Source: Bacteroidota bacterium
Lineage (GTDB): Bacteria > Bacteroidota > Rhodothermia > Rhodothermales > JANQRZ01
Direction of reading: 5' to 3'
NCBI GenBank assembly: GCA_038746285.1
Contig: JBCDKT010000001.1
Location: 123,757-187,756, forward strand
DNA: 64,000 bases
Part shown: piece after piece, positions 22,264-39,322 of the stretch
How the letters are laid out: each line of letters begins with the position of its first letter
Position numbering within the stretch: position 1 is the first letter of the stretch
Notes under the pieces: model-generated
What the model was told of the DNA's origin: nothing
What the model saw: only the letters and a program-made list of their open reading frames with translations
Databases searched by the model: none
Made by a program: the position numbers and the translations under genes

Positions 22264-25200
22264 TCAGCGCACGAGCGTGACCTGCTCGGTCCGCACGTCC
22301 GCGCCCGCGACCAGCCGGACGAGGTAGACCCCGCTCGGCAGCGCTGCTCCGTCGAGCACCGCCTCGTGCCGACCCGCTTCCAGTTCGCCGTCGGCGAGCC
22401 GCGCCACCTCGCGCCCGAGCACGTCGTAGACCGCCAGCCGCGCGTGCTGCGCCTCGGGCAGCGCGAACGCCACGGTCGCCGCCCGGCCGAACGGGTTCGG
22501 ATACGCCCCGGCCAGCTCGACCGTCTCGGGCACCGCTGCGCCCGACGCGGCCTCGACTGCATCGGCCTCCGGTGCAGCGGCCTCGTCAGCCTCTTTGGCT
22601 CCCGCCATCGGCTCCGGCACCCACGGCCCGACCTCCAGCGCCGCCCACGCCTCGGCACCGCTCGCCGCCCGTGCCGGCGTCACCACGATCTCGAAGCAGT
22701 CCTCGTCGATCACCACGTTCGGGAACAGCCCCACGCGCAGGCAGAAGTCGTACGTCGCCACCGGCGCGTTGCCCGGCACCTGCTGCACGTACGGGACCGT
22801 CACCTGCTGCCCCGAGGGCAGCGTCCCGTTGGTGATCACCCCCTCGGCCAGCGTCGGCCCGTTCTGGAGCGCCGCCGAGAACCACGACTGGCCCGTGGCC
22901 GGGTTGGCCGTGCCGTTGGCGACGACGTAGGTGAACGACACCTGCCCGCCGCGCGGGACGGTCAGCGGACTCGTCGGCGTGGCGTCGATCGTGATCTCGC
23001 CCGAGAGGCCCGCGTCCTCGACCTCGACCGAGGCGGCGAACTCGCTCGTCTTGCGGTAGCCCTGCGGCAGGGTCCCTGCGACCTCGGTCGCGTTGGCCGT
23101 CACGAACGAGCCGGCCGGATACGCGCTCGCGCCGAGCGTCTGGGTGCCACTCGCGTTGCCGCTCCCGTTGGTCGTGGTCGTGGCGAGCGCGTTCGGGGTC
23201 TCGCACTCGCCGAAGCCCGAGGCGTCGGGCGCGGCGTTGCGGCAGAAGAGCAGCTCGTAGGTGGTGTTGGCCTCGGCGTTGAGGGTCCAGGCGATGACGG
23301 AGTTCGAGCCGTCGTTCTCGGCCGAGGTGATGACGGGGAAGTTGAGGCGGTCGTTGGCCCCGCTGTCGCCGTCGCCCGCGTCGTTCGGGTTCGGCCCGTC
23401 CGGGGCGAGGTCGACCGCGAGCTGGCCGTTGGAGTCGATGACGTTGCCGACGATGGCGATGTCGGAGCACCCACCGCTGAGGAAGATGCCGTCGCGCTCG
23501 TTGAAGCGGATCGTGTTGGGCTGGAAGTTCTGGCCGATGCGGACGCCGGAGGCGCTCTGGCAGAAGATGCCCGCGAGGCCGTCCTCACCGGGGATGCCGT
23601 TGCCGAGGTCGTCGCCCGCGGCATTCGTGCCGATGAAGTTGTTTTCGAGCACGACGCCCGAGACGCCGCCGAAGAGAAAGACGCCGGTGTCGGTGTTGCC
23701 GGAGATCGTGTTGCCGGAGACGGTAGCGAGGCTGGCGCTGTTGCCGAGCACGAGGCCGGACTCGACGTTGGGGCGGGCGGCGGAGCCGTCGGCGGTGGTG
23801 CCGATGCGGTTGTCCGACACGACGAAGGCAGCGCTGGAGCGAGCAGCGGTCGTCCCACCGGCATCGCCCCGGAGGGGGCCGGCGAAACGGATACCGGAGC
23901 CGTTGTTGCCGCTCACGGTGTTGCCTCGGATCACAGGGTCGAAGCTGTCGAAGACGTCGATGCCGCTATTTTGGAGGTTGTCTCCGACTTGGCCGTTGGG
24001 GCGGACCGCCCCCGCGGCGTTGAGGCCGATGGTGTTCCCCTCAACGTGGGTGCTGATGCCGCCACCGAGAAAGACGCCACTCAAGACGTTGCCGGAGATG
24101 ACGTTCCCCTCGCCCGCCGCGAGCCCCCCGATCCGTGTACCGAGCGGGTCGTCACCATCGACTAAGACGCCGGAGCCGTTGGGTGCGGCGTTCCCGTTCA
24201 GGGCCAGCCCGACGGTGTTGTTTCGGATGCGGGTGTCCGACACGCCCGATCCGATGACGGAGATGCCGAATGTGTTGTTGCCGACGAAGTTGCCGTTGCC
24301 CGCGCCCGGTAGCCCGATGTCGTTGTCCACCAAGTCCTCGAAGGTATCGTCGTCTTCGACGAGGATACCATCGAACGCGCCCATGCCGCCGGGGCCGACC
24401 CCGCGGTTCTTGGTCAGCCCGACCGTGTTGTTGGTCAGCACGACGCCCGAGGGCACCGCCCCGTGCTCGCCCGGATCGAGGCCAAGGAAGATGCCCTCTA
24501 AGACGTTAGCTGAGGCGAGGTTCGTGTTGATGTCGGCGTTGTCGCCCGAGACCCAGATTCCGGTGGAACCGTTGCCGAGAGGCTGGTTGCCGTCGGCGTC
24601 ACTCCCGACGAGGTTGCGCTGGACTATCATCCCACTCTCGAACGGATAGGGGATGATGCCGATGTTGCCGTTGCCCGAGACGAGGTTGTTCTGCGTCGTG
24701 CCGTTGACCTCGATGCCGTCGAAGTTGCCGGCGGCCGCCTCGCCGGTGAAGTCGGTGCCGACGTAGTTGCACTCAGCGAGAGAGTTCTCCCTGAACGCTC
24801 GGATGCCCATCCCGGGGAAGTTCTGGATGACGAGGCCGCGCACCGTCATCCCCGGCTCGTTGAAGTTGCTCAGGCCATCCCCGAACGAGAGCAGGCTGCC
24901 GTCGAGGACGACGCGGAGGTCGTGCTTCGGTCCCGAGACGAGGTCGCCGCAGGAGGCCCCCGGCTGGGTCAGCCCGTCGATGGTCACGTCGGACGTTTCG
25001 ATTCTCGGGAGCGGGTCGGGACCCATACTCGAGACGAATTCGACTTGGATCTGCCACACGCCGGGGGCGATCTCGGAGCCTGTGGGGCCGTCGTCGATGG
25101 CAAACTCGATGGTGATGGGGCCAGTCGCGGCATTAGCCTCGTCAATCGCTGCGCGTAGCTGGCACTCGTCGGGGAAGCTGATGGTCTCGCAAACGCCGTC

Positions 25201-25572
25201 CCCCGGATTCGCGTCCCCTCCGCCGTCGTCAAAGGCCGCATCGACGGTGAGAACGAGAGAAGATCCTCGGTAGACCGGCACCGGCGGCACACGAGCCGAA
25301 CGGTCTGCGGCGCGGCGCGGCGCACGCGGAGCCACGGCCGGGAGGTCGGCCCGGAAGGCAGCAGACGCCGCGCGGCCCGCCTCGTTCAGCACGAGGCCGC
25401 CGAGGGCTTCGTCGTAGCGGTAGTAGACCGGGCGCTCCGTAGCCGGGCGGGCGGTCGGACGGGCCTCGAGCGCGGCCTCGGCATCGAGGGCGGGGGTGGA
25501 GCGCTGCTGGGCGTGGGAGGCCGGGGCGGCGAGCAGGGCCGCGAAGCAGAGGAGCGTGAGGAGTCGGCGCAT
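22264..25572 (-). CDS. Right-handed parallel beta-helix (PbH1) repeat protein with CSLREA-like N-domain and T9SS C-terminal sorting domain
   Basis: ATG at 25572 gives signal 'MRRLLTLLCFAALLAAPASHAQ'. 'CQLRAAIDEANA' is a CSLREA-like motif. Many 'N.VSGN...GI' turns ('NNLVSGNGNIGI', 'NTVSGNNGSGIRF', 'NTISGNTDTGVFL'). CTD 'AYPNPFGRAATVAFAL...LAVYDVLGREVARL...GVYLVRLVAGADVRTEQVTLVR'. Confidence 0.85.
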   Translation of the reverse strand: MRRLLTLLCFAALLAAPASHAQQRSTPALDAEAALEARPTARPATERPVYYRYDEALGGLVLNEAGRAASAAFRADLPAVAPRAPRRAADRSARVPPVPVYRGSSLVLTVDAAFDDGGGDANPGDGVCETISFPDECQLRAAIDEANAATGPITIEFAIDDGPTGSEIAPGVWQIQVEFVSSMGPDPLPRIETSDVTIDGLTQPGASCGDLVSGPKHDLRVVLDGSLLSFGDGLSNFNEPGMTVRGLVIQNFPGMGIRAFRENSLAECNYVGTDFTGEAAAGNFDGIEVNGTTQNNLVSGNGNIGIIPYPFESGMIVQRNLVGSDADGNQPLGNGSTGIWVSGDNADINTNLASANVLEGIFLGLDPGEHGAVPSGVVLTNNTVGLTKNRGVGPGGMGAFDGILVEDDDTFEDLVDNDIGLPGAGNGNFVGNNTFGISVIGSGVSDTRIRNNTVGLALNGNAAPNGSGVLVDGDDPLGTRIGGLAAGEGNVISGNVLSGVFLGGGISTHVEGNTIGLNAAGAVRPNGQVGDNLQNSGIDVFDSFDPVIRGNTVSGNNGSGIRFAGPLRGDAGGTTAARSSAAFVVSDNRIGTTADGSAARPNVESGLVLGNSASLATVSGNTISGNTDTGVFLFGGVSGVVLENNFIGTNAAGDDLGNGIPGEDGLAGIFCQSASGVRIGQNFQPNTIRFNERDGIFLSGGCSDIAIVGNVIDSNGQLAVDLAPDGPNPNDAGDGDSGANDRLNFPVITSAENDGSNSVIAWTLNAEANTTYELLFCRNAAPDASGFGECETPNALATTTTNGSGNASGTQTLGASAYPAGSFVTANATEVAGTLPQGYRKTSEFAASVEVEDAGLSGEITIDATPTSPLTVPRGGQVSFTYVVANGTANPATGQSWFSAALQNGPTLAEGVITNGTLPSGQQVTVPYVQQVPGNAPVATYDFCLRVGLFPNVVIDEDCFEIVVTPARAASGAEAWAALEVGPWVPEPMAGAKEADEAAAPEADAVEAASGAAVPETVELAGAYPNPFGRAATVAFALPEAQHARLAVYDVLGREVARLADGELEAGRHEAVLDGAALPSGVYLVRLVAGADVRTEQVTLVR

Positions 25573-25822
25573 GGGTTGGCTCGGGGGGTAGGGAAAGAAG
25601 GCCCGAGGCCGAAGCACCGGGACGAGTAGCGAAGAATAAGTCACCAGGCGTTAAAAAACTTAGCTTTGTCATACGCTTCCGGCGCAAACCCGTAGCGCCT
25701 TTGACTCCCAAACCATAGATCACACATTGGCGTTCGGGCCTAGTCAACGCTTGGCTCACGCAGAGCAGGCCAAGCACTCGGTGGAGCCTGCCCTGCTTTC
25801 GCTGACCGGGAGAAGCTCCGGT

Positions 25823-26840: not shown

Positions 26841-27095
26841 ATGACGATGGACACGCTGAACGTTTCTCTTCCGCCAGGTCTCGACCCTGCAACGGCGCGA
26901 CTCGCACTCGCGCTTGGGCTGTTCCAAGAAGAAGAGGTCTCGGTCGGTAAGGCTGCTGAGATCGCGGGCCTCTCGTACCGCGCCTTCCTCGACGCCCTCC
27001 ACGCGCGCGGCATCTCGGCCTACACCTACACGGACGAGATGCTCGACGAGGACCTCGCCTTCGTCCGCCGTTTCAGAGAGGACCGGCGGCTGTGA
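26841..27095 (+). CDS. UPF0175-family antitoxin
   Basis: 84-aa ORF. 'ARLALALGLFQEEEVSVGKAAEIAGLSYRAFLDALHARGI' is the UPF0175 HTH-like pattern. Its stop overlaps the start of the downstream PIN-like gene (GTGA, 27092-27095). Confidence 0.8.
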   Translation: MTMDTLNVSLPPGLDPATARLALALGLFQEEEVSVGKAAEIAGLSYRAFLDALHARGISAYTYTDEMLDEDLAFVRRFREDRRL

Positions 27096-27544
27096 CCGAC
27101 CTCGTCGTCACCGACACGTCGTGCCTGATCGCCCTCGACCGGATCGGGCAGATCAACCTCTTGCCTGCGCTCTTCACGGTTCATGCGCCACCGGCTGTTG
27201 TCGAAGAGTTCGGGAGCCGTCCACCCTGGCTACTCGTCGAAGAGGCCGACGCGGCCCGCGTCGAGGTTCTGATGCAGCACGTCGACCGCGGCGAAGCCGA
27301 GGCGATTGCGCTGGCCGAGTCTTACGACGATGTACAGCTTCTCATCGATGAGAAAAAAGGTCGGCGGGTGGCACGAGAGCTTGGCCTTTCGGTGACGGGG
27401 ACCGCCGGCCTCCTGCTCGCGGCGAAAGCCGCCGGGCGGATCGCGGAGGTCCGACCCCTTCTCGACGCGCTCATCCGCGCGCACGGATTCCGGCTGAGCA
27501 AACGGCACTACGAGCAGGTGCTCCACGCGGCTGGCGAGGCGTAG
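27092..27544 (+). CDS. DUF3368-family PIN-like toxin
   Basis: 150-aa ORF. '[21 protein letters not shown]', '[12 protein letters not shown]', '[35 protein letters not shown]' fit the typical DUF3368 (PIN-like) motif order. Known partner family of UPF0175. Confidence 0.8.
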
Positions 27545-27630: not shown

Positions 27631-29259
27631 ATGTCCCCTCCGTCTACCGGTCCCGCGCTCGGCTTCGAGTCTGTGCTCTGGGACGCCGCTGACCTACTCC
27701 GCTCCAACCTCGACCCCGCCGAGTACAAGCACGTCGTCCTCGGGCTCCTCTTCCTGAAGTACGTCTCCGACGCGTTCACCGAGCGCCGCGACGAACTGGC
27801 CGCCGCCGTGGCCGACCCCCACTCGGAATATTTCGTCCCCGAGGCGGAGCGCGAGGCGGAGCTAGAGATGGTGCTCGAAGACCGCGACGAGTACACCGCC
27901 GAGAACGTCTTCTGGGTGCCTCTCGAGGCGCGGTGGGAGCACCTCAAGGCGCACGCCTTCCGCCCCGAGATCGGGACGCTCGTGGACGATGCGATGGTGG
28001 CGATCGAGGACGCCAACCCGCAACTCCGGGGGGCGCTGCCGAAGATCTTCGCCCGGCCCGCGCTCGACAAGGAGAACCTCGGCAAGCTCATCGTTCGGTT
28101 CTCGGAGTTGGGCCTGGGCAGCCGTGAGCACCGCGACACCGACGTGCTCGGGCGCGTCTACGAATACTTCCTCGGGCGCTTCGCCTCGGCCGAGGGCAAG
28201 GGCGGCGGCGAGTTCTACACGCCCCGCTCCGTCGTGCGCCTGCTCGTCGAGATGCTCGAACCCTACGAGGGCCGCGTCTACGACCCGTGCTGCGGCTCCG
28301 GCGGCCTGTTCGTGCAGTCCCTCGCCTTCATCGAGGCGCACGACGGGCGGCGCGACCAGGTCTCGGTCTACGGCCAGGAGTCCAACCCGACGACGTGGCG
28401 GCTGGCGCGCATGAACCTCGCCATCCGCGGCATCGAGGCCCACCTCGGGCACAAGCACGCCGACACCTTCCGCGAAGACCTCCACCCCGACCTCCGCGCC
28501 GACGTCGTCCTCGCCAACCCGCCGTTCAACATCAGCCAGTGGCACGGCGAGAAGCTCCGCGACGACGTGCGCTGGCGCTTCGGCGCGCCGCCGGTGGGTA
28601 ACGCCAACTACGCCTGGATGCAGCACATCCTGCACCACCTCACCGCCACCGGCACGGCGGGCTTCGTGATGGCGAACGGCTCGCTCTCGACCTCGACCGG
28701 AGGCGAGGGGGCCATCCGCCGGAAGATGGTCGAGGCCGATGTCGTGGACTGCATCGTGGCGCTGCCGCCGCAGCTTTTTTACCAGACGCAGATCCCCGTC
28801 TCCCTCTGGTTCCTCACCAAGCACAAAGGACGGCTGGAGCGGACCGGCCGCCCCGCGCTCCGCGACCGCACCGGCGAGGTGCTCTTCATCGACGCCCGCG
28901 AGATGGGGACGATGGAGACGCGCGTCCACCGCATCCTGACCGGCGAGGACGACGCCCGACCGGGGCCGGAGACCGACATCGGGCGGATCGCGGCGACCTA
29001 CCACGCCTGGCGCAACGCCGACGGCGACTACGCCGACGTGCCCGGCTTCTGCAAGAGCGCGGGGCGAGACGAGATCGAGCGCAACCGGTTCGTGCTCACG
29101 CCGGGGCGCTACGTGGGCGTGGCGACGGTGGAGCGGGAGGGCGAACCGGTGGGCGAGGCGATCCAGCGGCTGATCGGCGAGGTCCGCGAGCAACTAGCCG
29201 AAGCGCGAGAGATGGACCCGACAATCGAGAACGTACTTAGCCTGCTTGAGGATGCCTGA
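27631..29259 (+). CDS. hsdM: Type I restriction-modification system, DNA methyltransferase subunit M
   Basis: HsdM_N '[34 protein letters not shown]'. SAM motif '[12 protein letters not shown]'. Catalytic '[12 protein letters not shown]' (NPPF). Confidence 0.95.
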
Positions 29260-30433
29260 TCTTCCCGAAGGCTGGTCAGAGTCCGCCCTCGGCGATGTCG
29301 TTACGCTGAAGCGTGGATACGATCTCCCCAAGCGCTCCCGTCGCGAGGGACCGGTCCCTGTAATTTCGTCTTCGGGGTATTCGGGAAATCACAACGAGGC
29401 GAAGGTCGATGCCCCCGGGGTCGTTACTGGGCGATATGGTACAATCGGCGAGGTCTACTACATCGAAGAGAATTTCTGGCCCCTCAACACGGCGCTCTAT
29501 GTCCGATCCTTTCATGGAAACGATCCGCTGTTCATTTCCTACTTTTTGCGGACTCTGAACTTTGAAGCGTACACGGACAAGGCGGCAGTTCCCGGCATCA
29601 ACCGAAATCACTTGCACCAGGAGCGCGTCGTTATTCCTGAGCCGGAGGAGCAGCAACGGATCGCCTCTGTGCTCCGGCTGCTCGACGACCGGATTGCGCT
29701 GAACCGGCGGATGAACCGGACGCTGGAGGCGCTCGCAGCTTCGCTCTTCCGCCAGCGCTTCGTGGCCTTCGAGGGGCAGGGGCCGCTCGTGGACTCCGGC
29801 ACGCCGCTCAGAGCCATCCCGGAGGGGTGGGTGGTCCGGCCCATCGGGGACGTACTCAAAACGGTCGGCGGCTCCACGCCGAGTACCAAGGTGGCTGAGT
29901 TCTGGGATGGAGGTTCCGTTCACTGGACCACACCCAAAGACCTCTCTTCGCTGGATACTCCGGTCTTGCTCGACACCGCTCGCCAGATCACCGAGGCAGG
30001 GCTTGCCAAGATCAGTTCTGGCTTACTTCCAGCGGGAACGGTGTTGATGTCCTCCCGCGCTCCCGTCGGCTACCTCGCCATCGCAGAGATTCCTGTTGCC
30101 GTCAACCAGGGCTATATCGCCTTCCCGCCATCCGACGAGTTCAGCAACCTTTTCATTCTCTTCTGGCTCCGCGCCAACATGGACCGGATCGTCGGGCGCG
30201 CAGGCGGAACTACGTTCAAGGAAATCAGCAAGCGAGGCTTTCGTCCTATGCTCATGGCCGTCCCACCGGCTGAGCTACGTGCTGAGTTTGAAACCGTGGC
30301 TCGCCCGCTCTACGACCGAATCGTAGCGAATGAGAAGCAGAGCCGGACACTGGCGGCGCTGCGGGACGAGCTGCTGCCGGAGCTGATCTCGGGTCGCCTC
30401 CGCGTACCCGAGACACTGGACGACCTCATTTGA
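29252..30433 (+). CDS. hsdS: Type I restriction-modification system, specificity subunit S (two TRDs)
   Basis: ATG at 29252 overlaps the hsdM stop by 8 nt. '[23 protein letters not shown]' and '[24 protein letters not shown]' open the two target-recognition domains. Conserved spacers '[23 protein letters not shown]' and '[23 protein letters not shown]'. Confidence 0.92.
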
Positions 30434-30454: not shown

Positions 30455-31540
30455 ATGCCTACTCAGAAAACCCACGTCCGCATTTTCGCGGCCTCTCCCG
30501 GCGATGTCACCGCCGAGCGCGATGCCCTCGATGAGGTCGCCGCCGACCTCAGCCACAGCCTCGACGGCGTCCATGTCGAGGTACTCCGGTGGGAGCGCGA
30601 TACCTACCCCGCGATGGGCCGCGCGCAGGGCCTCGTCTTCGACCAGATGGGCGAAGACTTTGACATCCTCGTCGGCATCATGTGGAAGCGATTCGGGAGT
30701 CCCACCGGCGAGGCCGAGTCCGGTACCGAGGAGGAGTTCGACCGCGCCTACGCACGGTGGCAGCAGACGGGCCAACCGCCGATCTTGTTCTACTTCTGCG
30801 AGCGTCCCTTCTTCCCGCGCACCGACCGCGAGGTAGAGCAGTTCCAGAAGGTGCAGGCCTTCCGCCAGCGGCTCGAAGGCTCCGGCCTCATCGGCACGTA
30901 CGAGGCTGTAGACGACTTCAAGAGGAAGGTCCGCCGCGCGCTCGACGCCACGATCCGCCGCGATGTGCTCGGCAAAGTTCCGGCGCAAAGCACGGACGCT
31001 TCCGCAGAGCAGACAGCCCCTACTCTGCCGGACGCCGACACCCACGAGCCTGTACCGTCTCGTTTCGGTGACATCCCGATGCCGCGCCGCCGGGCACGCG
31101 CCACCGACCTCGACAAGCACCGCTTCGTCCGCGACGGCTTCAGCACCATCGTCTCCTATTTCGAGGATGCCGGCGACCGCCTACGTCAGTCTGACCCGGC
31201 ACTCGACGTAGACCTTGAGACCGAGTCCTCGCGCGCCTTCCGTGCGACCGTATTCGAGAACGGCCAGGCACGCAGCCGCTGCCGCATCTGGATTTCCGAC
31301 TCGATGGGAGCAGAACAAATCGCCTATCTCGAAGGCGGGCGGGGCGGGGGATTTTCCAACAACTCGATGAATGACTACGTCAACGTGGCGGAGACCGATG
31401 GCGGCCTTGCGTTCGCGCTGTCCGGGATGGACTTCTCGACGCAGCCTGGACAGGTCGTGGATGCAGAGGGCGCAGCCCGGCATTTCTGGACCCGATTCAC
31501 CCGGCCGCTCGACGACGCTTCGCGTTCGCCGTGGGGATGA
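30455..31540 (+). CDS. Two-domain protein embedded in the type I R-M operon: N-terminal DUF4062-like domain plus uncharacterised C-terminal domain
   Basis: 361-aa ORF starting 21 nt after the hsdS stop. Residues about 8-130 follow the DUF4062 strand-helix pattern: 'VRIFAASPGDVTAERDAL...VEVLRWE...DILVGIMWKRFGSPTG...ESGTEEEFDRAY...PPILFYF'. A low-complexity linker covers about 175-215. I could not assign the C-terminal about 145 aa ('FVRDGFSTIVSYFED...CRIWISDSMG...LAFALSGMDF'). Confidence 0.6.
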   Translation: MPTQKTHVRIFAASPGDVTAERDALDEVAADLSHSLDGVHVEVLRWERDTYPAMGRAQGLVFDQMGEDFDILVGIMWKRFGSPTGEAESGTEEEFDRAYARWQQTGQPPILFYFCERPFFPRTDREVEQFQKVQAFRQRLEGSGLIGTYEAVDDFKRKVRRALDATIRRDVLGKVPAQSTDASAEQTAPTLPDADTHEPVPSRFGDIPMPRRRARATDLDKHRFVRDGFSTIVSYFEDAGDRLRQSDPALDVDLETESSRAFRATVFENGQARSRCRIWISDSMGAEQIAYLEGGRGGGFSNNSMNDYVNVAETDGGLAFALSGMDFSTQPGQVVDAEGAARHFWTRFTRPLDDASRSPWG

Positions 31541-31577: not shown

Positions 31578-31677
31578 GTCGGAGTAAACCTTGCCCTGCG
31601 CACCCATAAGGCAGCATTACAAGTTTCCGGTCGTTACTCCGACATTTCCGGGTCGGAGTAAAATGTCGGAGTAAACC
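31578..31677 (+). promoter_or_regulatory. Cluster of GTCGGAGTAA(A) repeats (3 direct + 1 inverted) upstream of hsdR
   Basis: Direct copies at 31578-31590 (GTCGGAGTAAACC), 31652-31661 and 31665-31677 (GTCGGAGTAAACC). Inverted copy TTACTCCGAC at 31634-31643 forms a 10-bp stem with the 31652 copy. The hsdR ATG at 31686 follows 9 nt after the last copy. Confidence 0.5.
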
Positions 31678-31685
31678 GCCTATCC

Positions 31686-34600
31686 ATGAGCCAACGTGTT
31701 ACCGAGAACACGGTCGAAGAGGCCGCCATCGCCTACTTCGCCGGGGAAACGAAGGCCGCCGGGCAGACGCTCGAAGGACTCGGCTACGCCTACCAGCCCG
31801 GCCTCGCCGTCGAGGACGAGCGCGGCGGGCCGGCGGGCGTTGTCCTCGAACGCCGCTTCCGCGCGGCGCTGCAACGCCTCAACCCCGACCTCTCGTCCGA
31901 CACCCTCGACCTCGCCGCGCGCGAAGTCCTCCAGCCGCAGTCGGCCGCGCTCGACGAGGCCAACCGCCGGTTCACGCGCCAGCTCCAGCGCGGCGTCGAG
32001 GTCGAGGTCCGCACCGAGCACGGTACGCGCGGGGCCCGCGTCCGCCTCGTGGACTACGACAACGCAGAGGCCAACGACTGGCTCGTCGTCAACCAGCTCA
32101 CGGTCGAGGAGCAGACGGCCAACCGCAACGTCCGCCGCCCGGACCTCGTGGTCTACCTCAACGGCCTGCCCGTGGCCGTGGCCGAACTCAAGAACGTCGC
32201 CGGGAGCAAGACCGAGCTGGCCGACGCGTGGCAGCAGTTCGAGACCTACAAAGACCAGATCCCGAGCCTGTTCGTCTACAACGTCGCGCTCGTGCTCTCG
32301 GACGGGCGGCAGGCGCACGTCGGCAGCCTGACCGCGCCGCTGCGCCGGTTCGGGCCGTGGCGCACGATGCCCGACGGGAGCGTCGCCCCCGAGGCTGCGC
32401 CCGCGCTCCGCACGCTCGTCGAGGGCTTCTTCGCGCCCGCCGCGTTCCTCGACGTAGCTCGCCACTTCCAGGTCTGGGAGACCGACCCCGACTCGGGCCG
32501 CCTCGTCAAAAAGCTCGCCGCCGACCACCAGCGCCGCGCCGTCAACCGGGCGCTCGGGGAGATCAAGACCGCCATCGCCGAAGACTCCGCCCGCGGCGGC
32601 GTGGTGTGGCACACGCAAGGCTCCGGCAAGAGCGTCTCGATGGCCTTCCTCGCCGCCAAAGCCCTCGTCACCCCATCGCTCAAGACGCCCACCGTCCTCG
32701 TCCTCACCGACCGGACGGCGCTCGACGACCAGCTCTTCGGGCAGTTCGCCGCCGTGCGCGACCTCCTCCCGGCCCCCGAGCAGGCCGAGACCCGCGAGCA
32801 CCTCCGCGACTTGCTCGCCACCCGCGCCGGCGGCATCGTCTTCTCGACGCTGCAGAAGTTCGGCACCCGCAAGGACGAGGCGATGCCCGTGCTCACCGAG
32901 CGCCGCAACGTCATCGTCCTCGCCGACGAGGCCCACCGCAGCCACTACGACTTCACCGACGGCCTCGCCCGAAACCTCCGCGACGCCCTGCCCCACGCCA
33001 CGTTCGTCGGCTTCACCGGCACGCCCCTCGAACTCAGCGACCGCTCCACCTCGAACGTCTTCGGCGACTACGTGGACACCTACACGATCTCCGAGGCCAT
33101 CGCCGACGACGTGATCGTACCGCTCTCGTACGAGAACCGCCTCGCCACGCTCGACCTCCCCGAGGAGGCTGAGTCGTTCCTTGACGAGGGCTTCGAGGAG
33201 GTGACCGAAGACCAGGAAATCTTCGACGTGGCGCGCATCCAGCGCAAGTGGAAGCAGCTCGAAGCGGTGGTCGGGCTGCCCGCTCGGCTCCGCGTCGTGG
33301 CGAAGGACATCGTCGCGCACTACGAGCGGCGGATCGAGACGCTCGAAGGCAAGGCGATGGTCGTCGGGATGAGCCGCCGCATCTGCGCCGAGCTGTACCG
33401 CGAGATCGTCAAGCTCCGCCCGGAATGGCACTCGGACAAGGACGAGGAGGGGCAGATCAAAGTCGTCATCACCGGCTCGGCCAGCGACGAGGCGCTCATC
33501 GCGCAGCACGTCCGCTCAAAGGCGCGGCGGGCGGTCATCGAGAAGCGGTTCAAGGAACCCATCGGCGAGGTCGAGCGCCGCAACGCCGAGGCCCGGCAGC
33601 AGGCAGAAGAACTGGGTCAGCCCCCGCCCGCCCCCGAGGTCCCGCTGCGTCTCGTGATCGTGCGCGACATGTGGCTGACCGGCTTCGACGTGCCGAGCGC
33701 CCACACGCTCTACGTCGACAAGCCGATGCAGGGTCACTCGCTGATGCAGGCCATCGCCCGCGTCAACCGCGTCTTCGCCGACAAGCCCGGCGGTCTCATC
33801 GTGGACTACATCGGGCTGGCCGACCCGCTCCGCAAAGCCGTCGAGACCTACAGCCGCTACAACGACCAGCCCACCCTCCCCATCGACGAGGCGCTCGGCG
33901 CGCTCCGCACCGCCGTCGGGCGCGTGCGCGACCTCTTCCACGGGTTCGACCTCCGCGACCGCTACGTTGAAGGCGGCCAGACCGAGCGCGTCGAGGTCTA
34001 CAACGAAGCCCTCGACCACCTCTTCGGGCTCGGTACCGCCACCGACGAGCGGGGACGCGAGCGCACCGGCCCCGAGCGGTACCACGACGCGATGGCGAGC
34101 CTCCGCAAGGCCGCCGGACTAGCCCTTCACCTCGAAGCCGCCCGCGACCTCCGCGACGAGATCGCCCTCTACGAGCAGCTCCAGCAGAGCGTCCGCAAGC
34201 AGAAGAAAACGGGCGGCGCAGGGGCTTCGGACAAGCGCGCTGTCGACTTCGCGCTGCGCCGCCTCGTCTCGGCCTCCGTCCACACCGACGAGGTCGTCGA
34301 CCTGTTCGAGATGGCCGGGCTCGAACATCCCGACCTCTCTATTCTGTCGGATGCGTTTCTGGAGCGGGTCCGCGCCGTCCCGCACGAGAACTTGCAGCGG
34401 GAGTTGTTGGAGCGAATCGTACGCGACCAGATCCGCAGCCAGCGCCGCCAGAACGTGGTCCAGGCCGACCGGTTCTCGGAGGCCCTCAAGGCCACGCTCA
34501 ACCGCTACCACAACCGCTCGCTGGAGACGGCGCAGGTCATCGCCGAGTTGATCGAGCTAGCCAAGACGATCCGCGCACTCCCCGACCGGGCGGCTGAACT

Positions 34601-34892
34601 GGGCCTCACGAACGACGAGCTTGCCTTCTACGACGCCCTCGCGGCTCAGGACGGCGTCACCGATGTGATGGACGACGATGCGCTCGGTGCTATCGCAAAA
34701 AGCCTCGCCGACACCATCCGCCGCTCCGCCACGATTGACTGGACCAAGAAAGAGGCCGTGCGCGCCCGGATGCGCGCTCGCGTCAAGCGCCTCCTCCGCC
34801 GCCACGGCTACCCCCCCGAAAAGCAGGAAAGCGCCGTCGAGACCGTCATCCACCAGGCCGAGGTGCTCGCCTCGACCACGGCTGCGTCATAG
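31686..34892 (+). CDS. hsdR: Type I restriction-modification system, endonuclease/translocase subunit R
   Basis: 1068-aa ORF. N-terminal nuclease region. SF2 helicase motifs '[10 protein letters not shown]' (Walker A) and 'VLADEAHRS' (DEAH). C-terminal '[19 protein letters not shown]' and an HsdR_C helical domain. Confidence 0.95.
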
Positions 34893-34918: not shown

Positions 34919-36004
34919 ATGGCAACCCCTTCACGCAACCCCGACTTCGACACGACTCTTTCTGCCCAAGTAGATCCTGGCGGGAAGCCTATTCATATCG
35001 CAGGTGTCTCGTTCGACCCCGCCGACGTGCTGTCTACGATGGATCCGGTAGCCTACGAGGCTGCCCTCACCGAGTGGACGAGAGTCAGTGAGCCGCTGGA
35101 GGACGTGCTGGCCCGTGCGCGTTCAGTCTTGACGCTCAGCGCTTCCAATCGTGAGCGGTTCGAAAGGCTGTCCGAGGTGGTCCAGCGCAACCAGGCAATC
35201 CCGTTCGTGGGAGCGGGACTGTCTCATCCATGTGGCAACCCACTGTGGAGAGAGTTTCTTCTTCGTCTCGCTGGAGAGTCAGGCATGGATGTCCCCAACA
35301 TCGCAGCACGCCTGAATGCTGGGGGGTACGAGCAAGTCGCAGAGGAGATCGTCGCTGCCCGACCGGCGAACTGGTTTAACGAGCGGTTGACGACCACCTA
35401 CAAGCGCGACATGGAACTGGCAGGGGCCGTTCTCCGCCTCCCACGCCTGTTTCAAGGGTGTCTCATCACGACTAACTTCGACGCTGTTCTAGAAACGGTC
35501 TATAAACAGGCTGCATGTGCTTTCGATCACCGGGTCATCGGGGGTAATGAAGGTGGATTCACGTACGCCCTTTCTCAAGGTGAACACCACCTCCTGAAGC
35601 TGCACGGGGACTTGGAATATCCTACGCACCGCGTCCTAACCTATTCGGAGTATGTCGCGGCCTACGGCGATACCGCCTTCGACTTCAGCTTGCCACTGCC
35701 GAAGGCAATCAAGGGAGTCTATGAGAACTACTTCCTTGTTTTCCTCGGGTGCAGCCTCGGAGCCGACCGGACGATGGACCTATGGGACTACCTCATCACA
35801 GCCGCTGGCTCCGATGCCATCCCTCGACATATCGCCATTATCGAAAGCCCAGAGGTGGACCGACTTCCGCCAGATCGCGAAGATGAGCTAGTCATCCGAA
35901 ACATCTTTCCCATCTGGTATCCCAAGGATCAGCATCAAGCCGTAGATGACCTGCTCGCTCTCCTCGATGCGGTTGTCAACGAGGGCGAGTCTATCGACAG
36001 GTAG
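34919..36004 (+). CDS. Stand-alone SIR2-like (SIR2_2 family) protein, predicted NAD-utilising effector
   Basis: 361-aa ORF starting 26 nt after the hsdR stop. SIR2_2 motif series 'IPFVGAGLSHPCGNPLWREFL', 'ITTNFDAVLE', 'LLKLHGDLEYPTHRVLTYSEYVAAY', 'FLVFLGCSLGADRTMDLW'. The Asn (TTNFD) and His (KLHGD) are intact. Locally much lower GC than the flanks. Confidence 0.75.
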   Translation: MATPSRNPDFDTTLSAQVDPGGKPIHIAGVSFDPADVLSTMDPVAYEAALTEWTRVSEPLEDVLARARSVLTLSASNRERFERLSEVVQRNQAIPFVGAGLSHPCGNPLWREFLLRLAGESGMDVPNIAARLNAGGYEQVAEEIVAARPANWFNERLTTTYKRDMELAGAVLRLPRLFQGCLITTNFDAVLETVYKQAACAFDHRVIGGNEGGFTYALSQGEHHLLKLHGDLEYPTHRVLTYSEYVAAYGDTAFDFSLPLPKAIKGVYENYFLVFLGCSLGADRTMDLWDYLITAAGSDAIPRHIAIIESPEVDRLPPDREDELVIRNIFPIWYPKDQHQAVDDLLALLDAVVNEGESIDR

Positions 36005-36012
36005 AGTGCAAG

Positions 36013-39000
36013 CTAGCGTGTCAGTACGACCCGCCGCGAGGCGCTGAACGGTCCGGCCTCCATGCGGACGAGGTAGACGCCGCTCGGGAGGCGCGCCCCG
36101 TCGAGGCGGACCGTGTGCCGGCCGGCGGGCATCGCCCCGTCGGCGAGCACGGCGATGCGGCGGCCGAGGAGGTCGAAGAGCGTCAGCCGCACCGTGCCCG
36201 GCTCCGGGAGGGTGAACCGGACGGTCGTCGCGGTGCGGAAGGGGTTGGGGTAGGCCGCGTCGAGGGCGTAGGCGGTCGGCAGGCCGGGCGCGCCGTCCTC
36301 GGCGTCGACGGCGAAGAGGGTCCACGCCGGGTCGTCGCTGCCGAAGGCGTCGCTCGCGCCGAGCGTGCCGGGGTCGGCGTTGCCGGTGGCGTCGCTGACG
36401 GCCTGCCCGGCCCCTTCGTCGAAGCGCCAGTAGCCGACCAGGCCCTCGCTCGCCGGATCGACCGTCTCCTGGCTCGCGGCGATCTGCTCGGGCGTGCGGG
36501 CGACGTTCCAGACGCGCACCTCGTCGATCCCGCCGGGGAAGGTGCGCTCGGGGCTGTTCTCGGAACTTCCGACGCGGAGCGCGAAGTCGTTGGCCGTGAT
36601 GCTGTGGCTGAGGCTCCGCGCGGCGACCTCTGCGCCGTCGACGTAGATCCGCATCGTCGCGCCGTCGTAGGTCGCGGCGACGTGTTGCCACACGTTGAGG
36701 GCGAGCGTCCCGTTCGGCGTCGTCAGCTCCTGCCACGAGCCGTTGCCGAGCAGCAGGTTGGCCCGCCCGTTGCCGCCGACGCGGAGCGCGTAGCCCTCGT
36801 CGTTCCCGGCCCCGCCGGCCTGCTCCTTGTTGAGGACGCTGCCCTGGAACGGCTGGTCGCGCCACGCGGTCGGGTTGATGCGGGCTTCGAGGGTGATCTG
36901 GGTGCCGGTCACGCTGAGGGCGGCGCCGCTGCCGAGGTCCACGAAGTCGTCCTCGCCGTCGAACAGGAGCGCGGCCCCGGCGCTCGCGCCCGTGCCGGTC
37001 GTGAAGCTCCACACCGGGCCTTCGGTCGTGCCCGCCGGGTTCACCTCGTCGGCGCGCCAGAAGTAGGTCGTCTCCGGGTCGAGCGGGCCGGGGTCGTAGA
37101 GCGGGTCGTCGGTCTCGGCAACTTGGGGCGGCGTGCTCGTGGTGCCGAAGTAGACGACATGGCTCACGGCTCCGCCGCCGGGCGTCCACGCGAGGCGGGT
37201 GTTGGTCGGTACGTTCGCCGCGCCGTCGGCCGGGTTGGGGGCCGAGGCGACGCCGGGCAGGTCGAAGCTGTTGACGGTGAGCGTTGCCGGTGCCGAGCGC
37301 GCGCCGGTCGGGCTGACAGCGACGACCTCGACCGGAATCTCGGCCTGCCCGTCGACGCGCCGCAGCGACGGGACGAAGTAGGCCGTCCCGGCAGCCCCGC
37401 CGATGAACTCCGGCTCGCCGCCCGGCAAGCGGCGGAGGACCTCGTAGTGGTGGACCGCGTCGGCGTCGGGCGAGGCCGTCCAGCGGAGCCGGAGCGTGAT
37501 CTCGTCGGCCGTCTCGTCGACCCGGCGCTCGACGGTCACGCCCGAGGGCGGGGCCGGGGCCGGGTCCGCGTCGTAGACGGCCAGCTTGCCGACGTGGACC
37601 TCGAAGCCGCTCCCGGCCGAGGCGGGGACGACGAGGCTCAGCCCGGCGAGCGAGCGCCCGCCGAAGCCCGACAGGTCGAGCGTCTCCACGTTCCAGCCCG
37701 CCGATGCGGCCGGGCCGAGCGCGAGCGTCGCCACGCCCCCGAGGTCGTCGGCAAAGGTCAGTCCGGCGGCGAGGGCCACCGGTCCCGCGGCGTCCACGCG
37801 GTAGGCGACCTCGAGGGTGCTGCTGCCGGTCAGGTCGAGATCGGTCTGAAAGAGGCGGACCGTCTGCTCGGCCGCCACGTCGCCCGCGAGCCGGAGCGAC
37901 GAGCCGCCCTGGTAGGCCGTGTCGAAGTCGTACCGGACCGTGACCGGCGTGCCCGCCGTCTCGACCCACCACCGCCACGTCGGGGCGAGGTCTTGGAGCG
38001 CGAGGTTGTTCCAGCCGTCGGCCTGCCACGCCGGGGCCGCGATGTCCTCGCCGCCCAGGAAATATCCCAGCCCCTGCCCGACGTTGAAGTGCGTCCCGAA
38101 CGGGAGCGCGTCGATGCTCGTCGCGGCGGGGATGTAGTGCGCGATGCCCTTCCAGTTGCCGGCGTCCTCGCGGCTCGGGTCGCCGTCGGCCCCGACCCAG
38201 AGGGCGCGCTCGGCTTCGTAGAAGTTGTCGAGGTTCGGGACGAGGGTTTCGTCCGGGCGGAAGATGCCGAGCGAGGTCCGGTGGGCTTCGCCGTCGGGGA
38301 AGATGCGCGGCATCGAGGAGGCGATCCCGAGGCCGCGCGCGCCGTAGTCGACCCCGGCGAACAGTTCGTAGGGGTCGCGCCCGAGCGAGGTCGCGTAGGC
38401 GTTGCTCGAGGCCAGGTCGTTCGCCGTCCAGCCGAAGTCGAGGAACATGTAATCGGACACGCGGACCTCGCCCTGCTGGAAGAAGGCGTCGTTCTGCGCG
38501 TTGAGCTGCTCCTGCCAGAAGATCGACCCCGACTCGGTCATCGCGTCGTACCACTCGATCTGCAGGTCGGAGTTGTCCTGGAGGTAGATCATGAGGTCCT
38601 GCAGGTCGGTGGCGAGCGCTGCGTTGCCGCCGGCCGTCTCCTGGTTGATGAACCACCCGTCGAAGCCGTAGTACGCGGCGGCCTCGATCAGCTTGTCGGC
38701 GACGGGGAACGCGTCGCCGTCGCGCTGCACGAAGTCGCGGACCCACTGGATCTGCCCGCCGAAGACGGTAGGCGGGAAGAAGACCGTCCCGAGGACCGGG
38801 ATGCCGTGGCGGTGCGCGGTGTCAGTGACGCCGGGGTTGGGCGCGAGGATCAGCCCCTCGCTCGCCGAGCCGCCCCAGAAGATGAGCACCTCCACGTAGG
38901 GCCAGTAGCTGAAGGCGTAGTAGCTCGCGTCGAGGCTCCCCTGCGAGGGGTTGCCGCTCGTCGGGGCGAAGACGGAGAGCGGGTTGATGCCGGCCTCACC

Positions 39001-39255
39001 GAGCCGGGCGTTGCCGTTCGCCTGGAGGCCGGGGACCGCGAAGCGCGAGGCCAGCGGGACCGCCGACCGGTTGTACGGCGCGTCGGGGTCCGTCTCCGGG
39101 CTCCAGTCGAGGATCGTGTTCGGGAACCACGCCGAGGCGAAGGGCTGGTCCGAGGGCACGCTCCGCGCGAGCGGCGGGGTGGCCGGGGTCATCTGGGCGT
39201 GGGCCGCCGGCAGCAGCGCGGCGAGGACGGCGAGGAGGAGCGTGAGGCGAGGCAT
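36013..39255 (-). CDS. Secreted GH85 endo-beta-N-acetylglucosaminidase-like enzyme with LamG domain and T9SS C-terminal sorting domain
   Basis: ATG at 39255 gives signal 'MPRLTLLLAVLAALLPAAHAQ'. GH85-like 'LIFWGGSASEGLILAPNPGVTDTAHRHGIPVLGTVFFP' and 'YYGFDGWFINQET' (N-x-E catalytic pattern). LamG 'ALLFDGEDDFVDLG...WQHVAATYDGATMRIYVDG...IDEVRVWNVARTPEQI'. CTD 'AYPNPFRTATTVRFTL...LTLFDLLGRRIAVL...GVYLVRMEAG'. Confidence 0.8.
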   Translation of the reverse strand: MPRLTLLLAVLAALLPAAHAQMTPATPPLARSVPSDQPFASAWFPNTILDWSPETDPDAPYNRSAVPLASRFAVPGLQANGNARLGEAGINPLSVFAPTSGNPSQGSLDASYYAFSYWPYVEVLIFWGGSASEGLILAPNPGVTDTAHRHGIPVLGTVFFPPTVFGGQIQWVRDFVQRDGDAFPVADKLIEAAAYYGFDGWFINQETAGGNAALATDLQDLMIYLQDNSDLQIEWYDAMTESGSIFWQEQLNAQNDAFFQQGEVRVSDYMFLDFGWTANDLASSNAYATSLGRDPYELFAGVDYGARGLGIASSMPRIFPDGEAHRTSLGIFRPDETLVPNLDNFYEAERALWVGADGDPSREDAGNWKGIAHYIPAATSIDALPFGTHFNVGQGLGYFLGGEDIAAPAWQADGWNNLALQDLAPTWRWWVETAGTPVTVRYDFDTAYQGGSSLRLAGDVAAEQTVRLFQTDLDLTGSSTLEVAYRVDAAGPVALAAGLTFADDLGGVATLALGPAASAGWNVETLDLSGFGGRSLAGLSLVVPASAGSGFEVHVGKLAVYDADPAPAPPSGVTVERRVDETADEITLRLRWTASPDADAVHHYEVLRRLPGGEPEFIGGAAGTAYFVPSLRRVDGQAEIPVEVVAVSPTGARSAPATLTVNSFDLPGVASAPNPADGAANVPTNTRLAWTPGGGAVSHVVYFGTTSTPPQVAETDDPLYDPGPLDPETTYFWRADEVNPAGTTEGPVWSFTTGTGASAGAALLFDGEDDFVDLGSGAALSVTGTQITLEARINPTAWRDQPFQGSVLNKEQAGGAGNDEGYALRVGGNGRANLLLGNGSWQELTTPNGTLALNVWQHVAATYDGATMRIYVDGAEVAARSLSHSITANDFALRVGSSENSPERTFPGGIDEVRVWNVARTPEQIAASQETVDPASEGLVGYWRFDEGAGQAVSDATGNADPGTLGASDAFGSDDPAWTLFAVDAEDGAPGLPTAYALDAAYPNPFRTATTVRFTLPEPGTVRLTLFDLLGRRIAVLADGAMPAGRHTVRLDGARLPSGVYLVRMEAGPFSASRRVVLTR

Positions 39256-39322
39256 CGGGGCAGGGGGATGAAGACCGGCGGAGGATACGAACACGCCCTG
39301 CCGGCCTCAAGCGCTGCTCTGG

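Follow-up and report, generated by a model that had tools for sequence, protein, structure and literature searches.

The gene considered here encodes a protein of the SIR2_2 family, a predicted NAD+ hydrolase (NADase), and belongs to a type I restriction-modification (R-M) operon in the genome of a Bacteroidota bacterium. The operon lies within a stretch of 64,000 nucleotides (nt) of contig JBCDKT010000001.1 (assembly GCA_038746285.1), the whole of which is referred to below as the window. Its genes follow one another in the order hsdM-hsdS-(DUF4062)-hsdR-SIR2, and the features on which the argument depends are as follows (aa, amino acids; ORF, open reading frame):

27631..29259, forward strand: hsdM, methyltransferase subunit of the type I R-M system, 542 aa (Pfam N6_Mtase, 8.6e-104; HsdM_N, 7.6e-26)
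29246..30433, forward strand: hsdS, specificity subunit, 395 aa (Pfam Methylase_S, 2e-36, in two stretches)
30455..31540, forward strand: DUF4062 accessory ORF, 361 aa, following hsdS after a gap of 21 nt
31578..31675: four repeats of GTCGGAGTAAA, three in direct orientation and one inverted (one mismatch), within the 145 nt that separate the DUF4062 gene from hsdR
31686..34892, forward strand: hsdR, restriction and translocase subunit, 1068 aa (Pfam HSDR_N, SWI2_SNF2, T1R_D3-like and T1RH-like_C, 3e-106)
34919..36004, forward strand: the SIR2 gene, ATG start, a SIR2_2-family predicted NADase of 361 aa
34919..35158, forward strand: N-terminal module of the SIR2 protein, aa 1-80 (helix, beta-hairpin, three helices), a candidate docking or regulatory module
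35474..35476, forward strand: codon of the catalytic Asn186 (TTNFD)
35603..35605, forward strand: codon of the catalytic His229 (KLHGD)

The SIR2 gene starts 26 nt after the stop codon of hsdR and converges on a GH85 gene whose own stop lies at 36013, the same arrangement of neighbours that had been described in an earlier reading of this DNA from its letters alone (hereafter the original prediction). The protein matches the Pfam family SIR2_2 (PF13289) over aa 182-331 with an E-value of 4.8e-21 (75.8 bits against a cut-off of 24.5), and all four of the motif blocks expected by the original prediction could be located, namely FVGAGLS (96-102), ITTNFD (183-188), KLHGD (227-231) and FLGCSL..DRT (275-285). 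The same prediction had singled out the asparagine and the histidine of the second and third blocks as the positions mutated to inactivate SIR2-type NADases. In a phmmer alignment Asn186 and His229 indeed fall on the catalytic pair of ThsA, the latter on the histidine of its KMHGD motif, and the ThsA chain 8bto carries alanine, an inactivating mutation, at the position aligned with Asn186. Both residues are invariant in all 81 of the family members aligned.

An AlphaFold2 model of the protein, built from a 25-sequence alignment, has a predicted local distance difference test score (pLDDT) of 88.8 and a predicted template modelling score of 0.82. It comprises an N-terminal module of about 80 residues, in which a helix and a beta-hairpin are followed by three further helices, and then a Rossmann-type SIR2 core. 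When this model was compared with the PDB using Foldseek, the top 50 matches were all ThsA (8btp, 1.5e-12), DSR2 or KomC, with no classical sirtuin among them, and ThsA is also the best match of the core at the level of sequence (6lhx, 5e-6). A Pfam search finds SIR2_2 and no second domain, and specifically no SLOG, Macro, HerA, pAgo or STAND part, which bears out the earlier statement that no known sensor or partner domain is present in cis. The matches to PADLOC models (ThsA1, LmuA, Dsr1 and PDC-S25) are partial and confined to the SIR2 domain; there is no full-length PADLOC model for the protein and no match in NCBIfam. It is a defence-type SIR2 protein with intact catalytic residues and no sensor domain of its own, and it is predicted to act as an NADase.

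The genomic context of the family was surveyed in the best 80 of 381 genome matches, taken from species-representative genomes, and these loci were searched with the Hsd proteins of the window together with those of a second R-M type. The family is large: its proteins are about 340-380 aa in length, there were 906 matches in a search of 90%-identity clusters, and a family profile collects 1,249 clusters at 50% identity (E<=1e-30; fusion forms are counted too). Type I R-M genes are adjacent to the SIR2 gene and on the same strand in 72 of the 80 related loci, which come from many phyla. The gene had been described as ‘stand-alone’, and this is a misnomer because it belongs to an R-M operon. The commonest arrangement is hsdM-hsdS-SIR2-hsdR, with 27 complete cases and further partial ones on short contigs, in hosts that include Paenibacillus, Polaromonas, Hymenobacter, Kangiella and Nitrospira. 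In 22 cases the order is hsdR-hsdM-hsdS-SIR2, and there HsdR has an EcoEI_R_C domain and therefore belongs to a different type I family. The order SIR2-hsdM-hsdS-hsdR is found in Bdellovibrio-like organisms, and hsdM-hsdS-hsdR-SIR2 in a Nannocystis locus (L001); that order also holds for the window and for its closest relatives (L081-L083; 51% identity), which have the same layout, with one or more DUF4062 genes inserted after hsdS and before hsdR. Five further, independent examples embedded in R-M operons were found on two PGAP-annotated plasmids, in a Leptospira genome and on two metagenome contigs, one from JGI and one from Logan; the Leptospira SIR2 gene shares 4 nt with hsdS and another 4 nt with hsdR. 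The family is therefore found almost exclusively within type I R-M operons, which are of at least two unrelated R-M families.

The exceptions to this rule are informative. R-M genes are missing from eight of the 80 loci, of which two lie at contig edges and six have adequate flanks. The six proteins from loci with adequate flanks are longer (405-1465 aa), share the same SIR2 core and form their own clade in a rough neighbour-joining tree. Sequence inspection identifies one of them (L056) as a SIR2-STAND/TPR protein, a second (L080) as NB-ARC-WD40-SIR2, and a third (L072) as SIR2 joined to an FGE-sulfatase-like domain, and on long representatives of a similar kind NB-ARC, AAA and TPR domains were confirmed with Pfam. 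A fused STAND NTPase with a repeat sensor is present in the sister-clade proteins L056, L080, P0329 and P0351, and is not present in the protein of the window.

What the long proteins lack is the N-terminal module. The original prediction had pointed to an N-terminal extension of unfamiliar nature, and the first 80 or so residues of the window protein indeed give no Pfam match at a threshold as loose as E<=10. The module is modelled with pLDDT values of 66-85 and contains two conserved residues, D42 and Y46. A hidden Markov model (HMM) of the module matches 70 of the 73 R-M-linked SIR2 proteins and none of the six proteins from the R-M-less loci with adequate flanks. The three R-M-linked genes that it misses are those of L012, L014 and L059; two of these were called as short ORFs (281 and 254 aa) and are possibly truncated or frameshifted, and L059 (373 aa) may have a divergent module. 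The minimal SIR2 protein with its N-terminal module thus goes with R-M, and outside R-M the same core has extra sequence in cis. This is the pattern to be expected if the R-M complex senses in trans and the N-terminal module serves as an adaptor.

In the window, the R-M genes themselves appear to be in working order. HsdM has an NPPF motif at aa 296, and its gene overlaps hsdS by 14 nt. The nuclease motif of HsdR (D153...E167.K169) aligns with that of the EcoR124 HsdR, and both GSGKS312 and DEAH414 are kept. Since the catalytic motifs of HsdR and HsdM are intact, the R-M system looks functional and not like a decoy of the Ronin type. Across the family, SIR2 clades follow the R-M family and the gene order in a rough neighbour-joining tree, and pairwise distances for SIR2 correlate with those for HsdR (0.63) and HsdM (0.54), these values again being rough. 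The four matches to GTCGGAGTAAA ahead of hsdR compare with 0.42 expected, none of 100 shuffled sequences reaches four, and there is no other site in the window; these repeats could be an operator or promoter element for hsdR and SIR2. They were not found in L081, the closest related operon, and a promoter and terminator scan of the window operon gave nothing above shuffled expectation.

Collectively these observations lead us to favour, with modest confidence, the view that the SIR2 protein is a latent NADase, an effector of abortive infection to which the type I R-M complex is coupled in trans. The enzyme would be co-expressed with hsdR and held inactive, the N-terminal module of about 80 residues would tie it, probably physically, to the complex of HsdR, HsdM and HsdS, and that complex would act as its sensor. 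Perturbation of the restriction complex would then release or activate SIR2, and the resulting depletion of NAD+ would stop replication of the phage. The trigger might be a phage anti-restriction protein, according to the guard logic of PrrC and Ronin, or an overwhelming engagement of the complex with unmodified DNA. More tentatively, and as a specific model in which we have rather less confidence, the type I complex may be the sensor of infection onto which the N-terminal module docks SIR2, with anti-restriction proteins or saturation by unmodified DNA freeing it to deplete NAD+. The original prediction had held that control must come in trans, from the R-M complex or from the DUF4062 ORF; the first of these sources fits the comparative genomics, while the second is not a conserved partner (see below).

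There are two precedents for reading the locus in this way. PrrC is encoded in the hsdS-hsdR slot and is kept latent by EcoprrI (PMC3632139), and RonA is caged by HsdMS and freed by ArdA or Aop1 (bioRxiv 10.1101/2023.04.06.535777). The prrC gene of the EcoprrI type IC operon (hsdM-hsdS-prrC-hsdR) occupies the same position as most members of the SIR2 family, and PrrC is, according to Payne et al. (bioRxiv 10.1101/2024.01.29.577857), likewise almost exclusively R-M-embedded. It is a latent suicide effector mounted on a working type I R-M system (PMC3632139), and by analogy the same logic is presumed to apply to SIR2. However, PrrC combines an ABC-ATPase with a HEPN tRNA anticodon nuclease and has no sequence relationship to the SIR2 NADase fold found here. 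Embedding of the SIR2 gene is seen in 72 of 80 loci and in the five additional examples; its product may resemble PrrC in the way it works, but it belongs to a different family. Ronin, which consists of RonA and an HsdM/HsdS decoy, also has a toxic effector genetically tied to Hsd subunits, in the manner of the caging proposed for SIR2. The effector of Ronin is a membrane peptide of 61 aa, and hsdR is usually missing (Silas et al., bioRxiv 10.1101/2023.04.06.535777); the window has an hsdR whose motifs are intact, and an enzyme takes the place of the peptide.

Comparison with known SIR2-based systems places the protein apart from each of them. ThsA, the SIR2-SLOG NADase of type I Thoeris, has the same catalytic asparagine and histidine, but the window protein ends with its SIR2 core, without SLOG or Macro domain, carries the N-terminal module instead, and has no conserved TIR partner; it cannot be counted as a ThsA because it lacks both the SLOG domain and a conserved ThsB. 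Closer in design are KomC of the Kongming system, SIR2-HerA and SIR2-APAZ/pAgo (SPARSA), in which a small SIR2 protein has its sensor in neighbouring genes, as we suggest here; KomC, at 264 aa, is also among the top structural matches. The partners in the present case would be HsdM, HsdS and HsdR, however, and there is no KomA or KomB, HerA or pAgo in the locus. DSR1 and DSR2 are proteins of about 1000 aa with a large helical sensor domain, whereas the window protein has 361 aa and the PADLOC Dsr1 match covers the SIR2 part only. The Avs5/SIR2-STAND type is represented by the sister clade, in which NB-ARC/STAND-TPR or WD40 parts are joined to this SIR2 core, and the window protein has neither ATPase nor repeat domain.

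Several observations weigh against such a coupling. In a published case, DarTG2 is encoded between hsdS and hsdR (PMC12255303), and in eight of the loci examined here ORFs judged from their sequence to be Abi-like, RhuM-like, Mrr-like or ATPase-like adjoin the SIR2 gene. Because the hsdS-hsdR region is a general hotspot for autonomous defence genes, embedding alone is no proof of functional dependence, and in the window the SIR2 gene stands after hsdR and thus outside the canonical slot. The distances for HsdM and HsdR correlate with each other at 0.88, which exceeds the values of 0.54-0.63 obtained between SIR2 and the Hsd proteins, and the mean distance is 0.60 for SIR2 against 0.36-0.38 for HsdM and HsdR. 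Since SIR2 evolves faster than these subunits and is less correlated with them, some shuffling occurs. Finally, no SIR2-Hsd fusion was found among ten long family members checked, so that physical contact receives no direct support from this quarter.

The window has a GC content of about 70%, and in windows of the length of the gene the mean is 0.696 (standard deviation 0.035); the SIR2 gene, at 0.578, is the lowest such stretch in the 64 kb. At third codon positions its GC content (GC3) is 0.652, and the median of 33 ORFs of the window is 0.90. The original prediction had proposed a lower-GC gene on the strength of hand counts in two lines of sequence (28/60 and 46/60), which are exact, and the dip that they suggested is borne out. 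It had gone on to argue for horizontal acquisition, and in this respect it needs revision. Within the operon hsdM (GC3 0.928) and hsdR (0.920) are native-like, and hsdS (0.727) and the DUF4062 gene (0.80) are lower, so that the operon is a compositional mosaic. Across the family, 66 of 68 loci have a SIR2 gene with a lower GC3 than hsdM and hsdR (mean difference -0.16, Wilcoxon p=1e-12), all 14 high-GC loci included, and the same is true of hsdS in 54 of 58. The dip is family-wide and common to hsdS, and it therefore marks a mobile accessory module of fast turnover and not a recent transfer into this particular genome. Recent transfer as its cause has accordingly been replaced by a compositional bias of the whole family; the dip may also stem from poor codon adaptation in a gene whose product is toxic.

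A compositional signature of this kind, distinct from hsdM and hsdR and shared with hsdS, is also what might be expected of the most serious alternative, namely that SIR2 is an autonomous single-gene defence system which does its own phage sensing, for example through the N-terminal module, and gains no more from the R-M operon than shared regulation and shared transfer. In this case defence cargo would recombine preferentially into the hsdS-hsdR region, a behaviour documented for DarTG2 and other cargo (PMC12255303; bioRxiv 10.1101/2024.01.29.577857), and the diverse extra genes that occupy the same slot in eight loci and in L085 are in keeping with this. Set against these points, the near-exclusive embedding in R-M operons extends over four gene orders and over two or three R-M lineages that are not related to each other, and coding overlaps tie the SIR2 gene to hsdS and hsdR. 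Moreover, a module of about 80 residues is small for a sensor, and the relatives outside R-M operons have extra sequence in cis that includes, in some of them, recognisable sensor domains. We therefore regard full autonomy as unlikely, though it deserves to be taken seriously.

A different use of the same chemistry would be the modification of Hsd subunits, by ADP-ribosylation or deacylation, or the ADP-ribosylation of a phage target, in either case with no depletion of NAD+. Some SIR2-family enzymes are ADP-ribosyltransferases, and the tight operon linkage would suit a protein that acts on its Hsd neighbours. However, the nearest structures and sequences are those of defence effectors that deplete NAD+, the protein has neither a zinc ribbon nor an acyl-lysine sirtuin signature, and in the STAND-type proteins of sister clades this core serves as the effector domain. 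Taken together, this makes a modifying role improbable.

The DUF4062 gene raises the further possibility of a Thoeris-like pair, in which its TIR-like product would make a nucleotide signal that activates SIR2. Its protein has an N-terminal DUF4062 domain (flavodoxin/TIR-like, with an invariant SGTEEEF), a disordered linker and a C-terminal domain of the Y4lF type, the latter assigned to PF27176 in precomputed annotation. The Pfam DUF4062 match, at 9.7e-4, is below the cut-off, and the AlphaFold2 model (pLDDT 79.8) has two domains. PADLOC matches the protein with PDC-S60 at 4e-43 (aa 8-187) and with a ThsB1 model (PDLC00420) at 2e-23 (aa 150-353), and its ThsA SIR2 models match the SIR2 protein at 5e-14; in addition, both genes recur together in the immediate relatives of the window, L081-L083, and in L002. 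These are, with the window, the only ones of the loci examined in which a DUF4062 gene and a SIR2 gene of this family occur together. A fold search with the DUF4062 model returned generic flavodoxin-like matches only, and the SIR2 protein has no SLOG, Macro or other ligand-sensing domain through which such a signal might be read. Of the 80 related genome loci, 79 have no DUF4062 gene, and elsewhere DUF4062-Y4lF genes occur alone, next to BREX, by DISARM-like genes and in a large accessory cluster that precedes another hsdR; one DUF4062 homologue has a SIR2 gene nearby, which is of the pAgo-associated type and not a ThsA. Because of this absence and this independence, a Thoeris-like pairing has been down-weighted to the point where we consider it very unlikely, and DUF4062 is probably an independent gene of defence islands and not an obligate partner of SIR2.

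Least likely is that the gene encodes a housekeeping CobB-like sirtuin deacylase which adjoins R-M genes by chance, a relationship that the original prediction had named as one that would count against it: public records call the family only ‘SIR2 family protein’, but the protein matches SIR2_2 and not the classical SIR2 family in Pfam, its operon context is conserved, inspection of the sequence finds four isolated cysteines and no CxxC pair and hence no Cys4 zinc ribbon, and this together with a top 50 of structural matches made up of defence NADases (ThsA, DSR2, KomC) and the missing NCBIfam match leads us to reject it.

The gene content of the slot between hsdS and hsdR varies among relatives of the window. 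In L081 (3299-6592) three consecutive DUF4062/PDC-S60-like genes (370, 307 and 389 aa) lie between hsdS and hsdR, where the window has one, which suggests that this gene array expands and contracts. In L085 (1-14012) an accessory string of 13 kb, with Y4lF, GmrSD_N, SocA_Panacea, Fic, HSP70-like and TerB genes, is found upstream of an hsdR of the same family as that of the window, and shows the size that embedded cargo can attain in this R-M family.

Directly upstream of hsdM, at 26841-27544, lies a toxin-antitoxin pair composed of a UPF0175 gene (antitoxin-like, 84 aa) and a DUF3368/PIN-like gene (150 aa) that overlap by 4 nt. This pair and the R-M operon form a small defence island, which is bordered by an SDR gene on one side and by the GH85 gene on the other. 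The large genes on either side, for a beta-helix protein (22264-25644, reverse strand) and for the GH85 endo-hexosaminidase (36013-39294, reverse strand), both end in Por_Secre_tail sorting domains of the type IX secretion system, which fit a host of the Bacteroidota type despite the GC content of about 70%.

The chemistry of SIR2 effectors and the logic of embedding in R-M operons are both known, while their combination is widespread and uncharacterised in the literature found. No description of an R-M-embedded SIR2 was found there, nor in PADLOC or NCBIfam, none of the papers searched brings SIR2, hsdM and hsdS together, and the available part of the supplements to the guilt-by-embedding preprint (bioRxiv 10.1101/2024.01.29.577857) has no SIR2 entry, which does not prove its absence. 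The family is nonetheless large, is spread over many phyla and plasmids, and has no model of its own in either database. For those who annotate such genes there is also a warning, that their dip in GC is a trait of the family and not evidence of recent transfer.

For decades hardly any suicide effector linked to a working type I R-M enzyme had been studied apart from PrrC; Ronin has added a version based on a decoy. If the coupling proposed here is true, the SIR2 family would provide a second and far more widespread case of the PrrC type, one that is built on another effector chemistry and occurs in two or more type I families unrelated to each other. The annotation of defence systems would be improved, and there would be a tractable system in which to ask how an R-M complex reports its own inhibition, given a small enzyme, a readout in the loss of NAD+ and a defined N-terminal module. 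Switching from restriction to abortive infection would then be a common design and not a curiosity.

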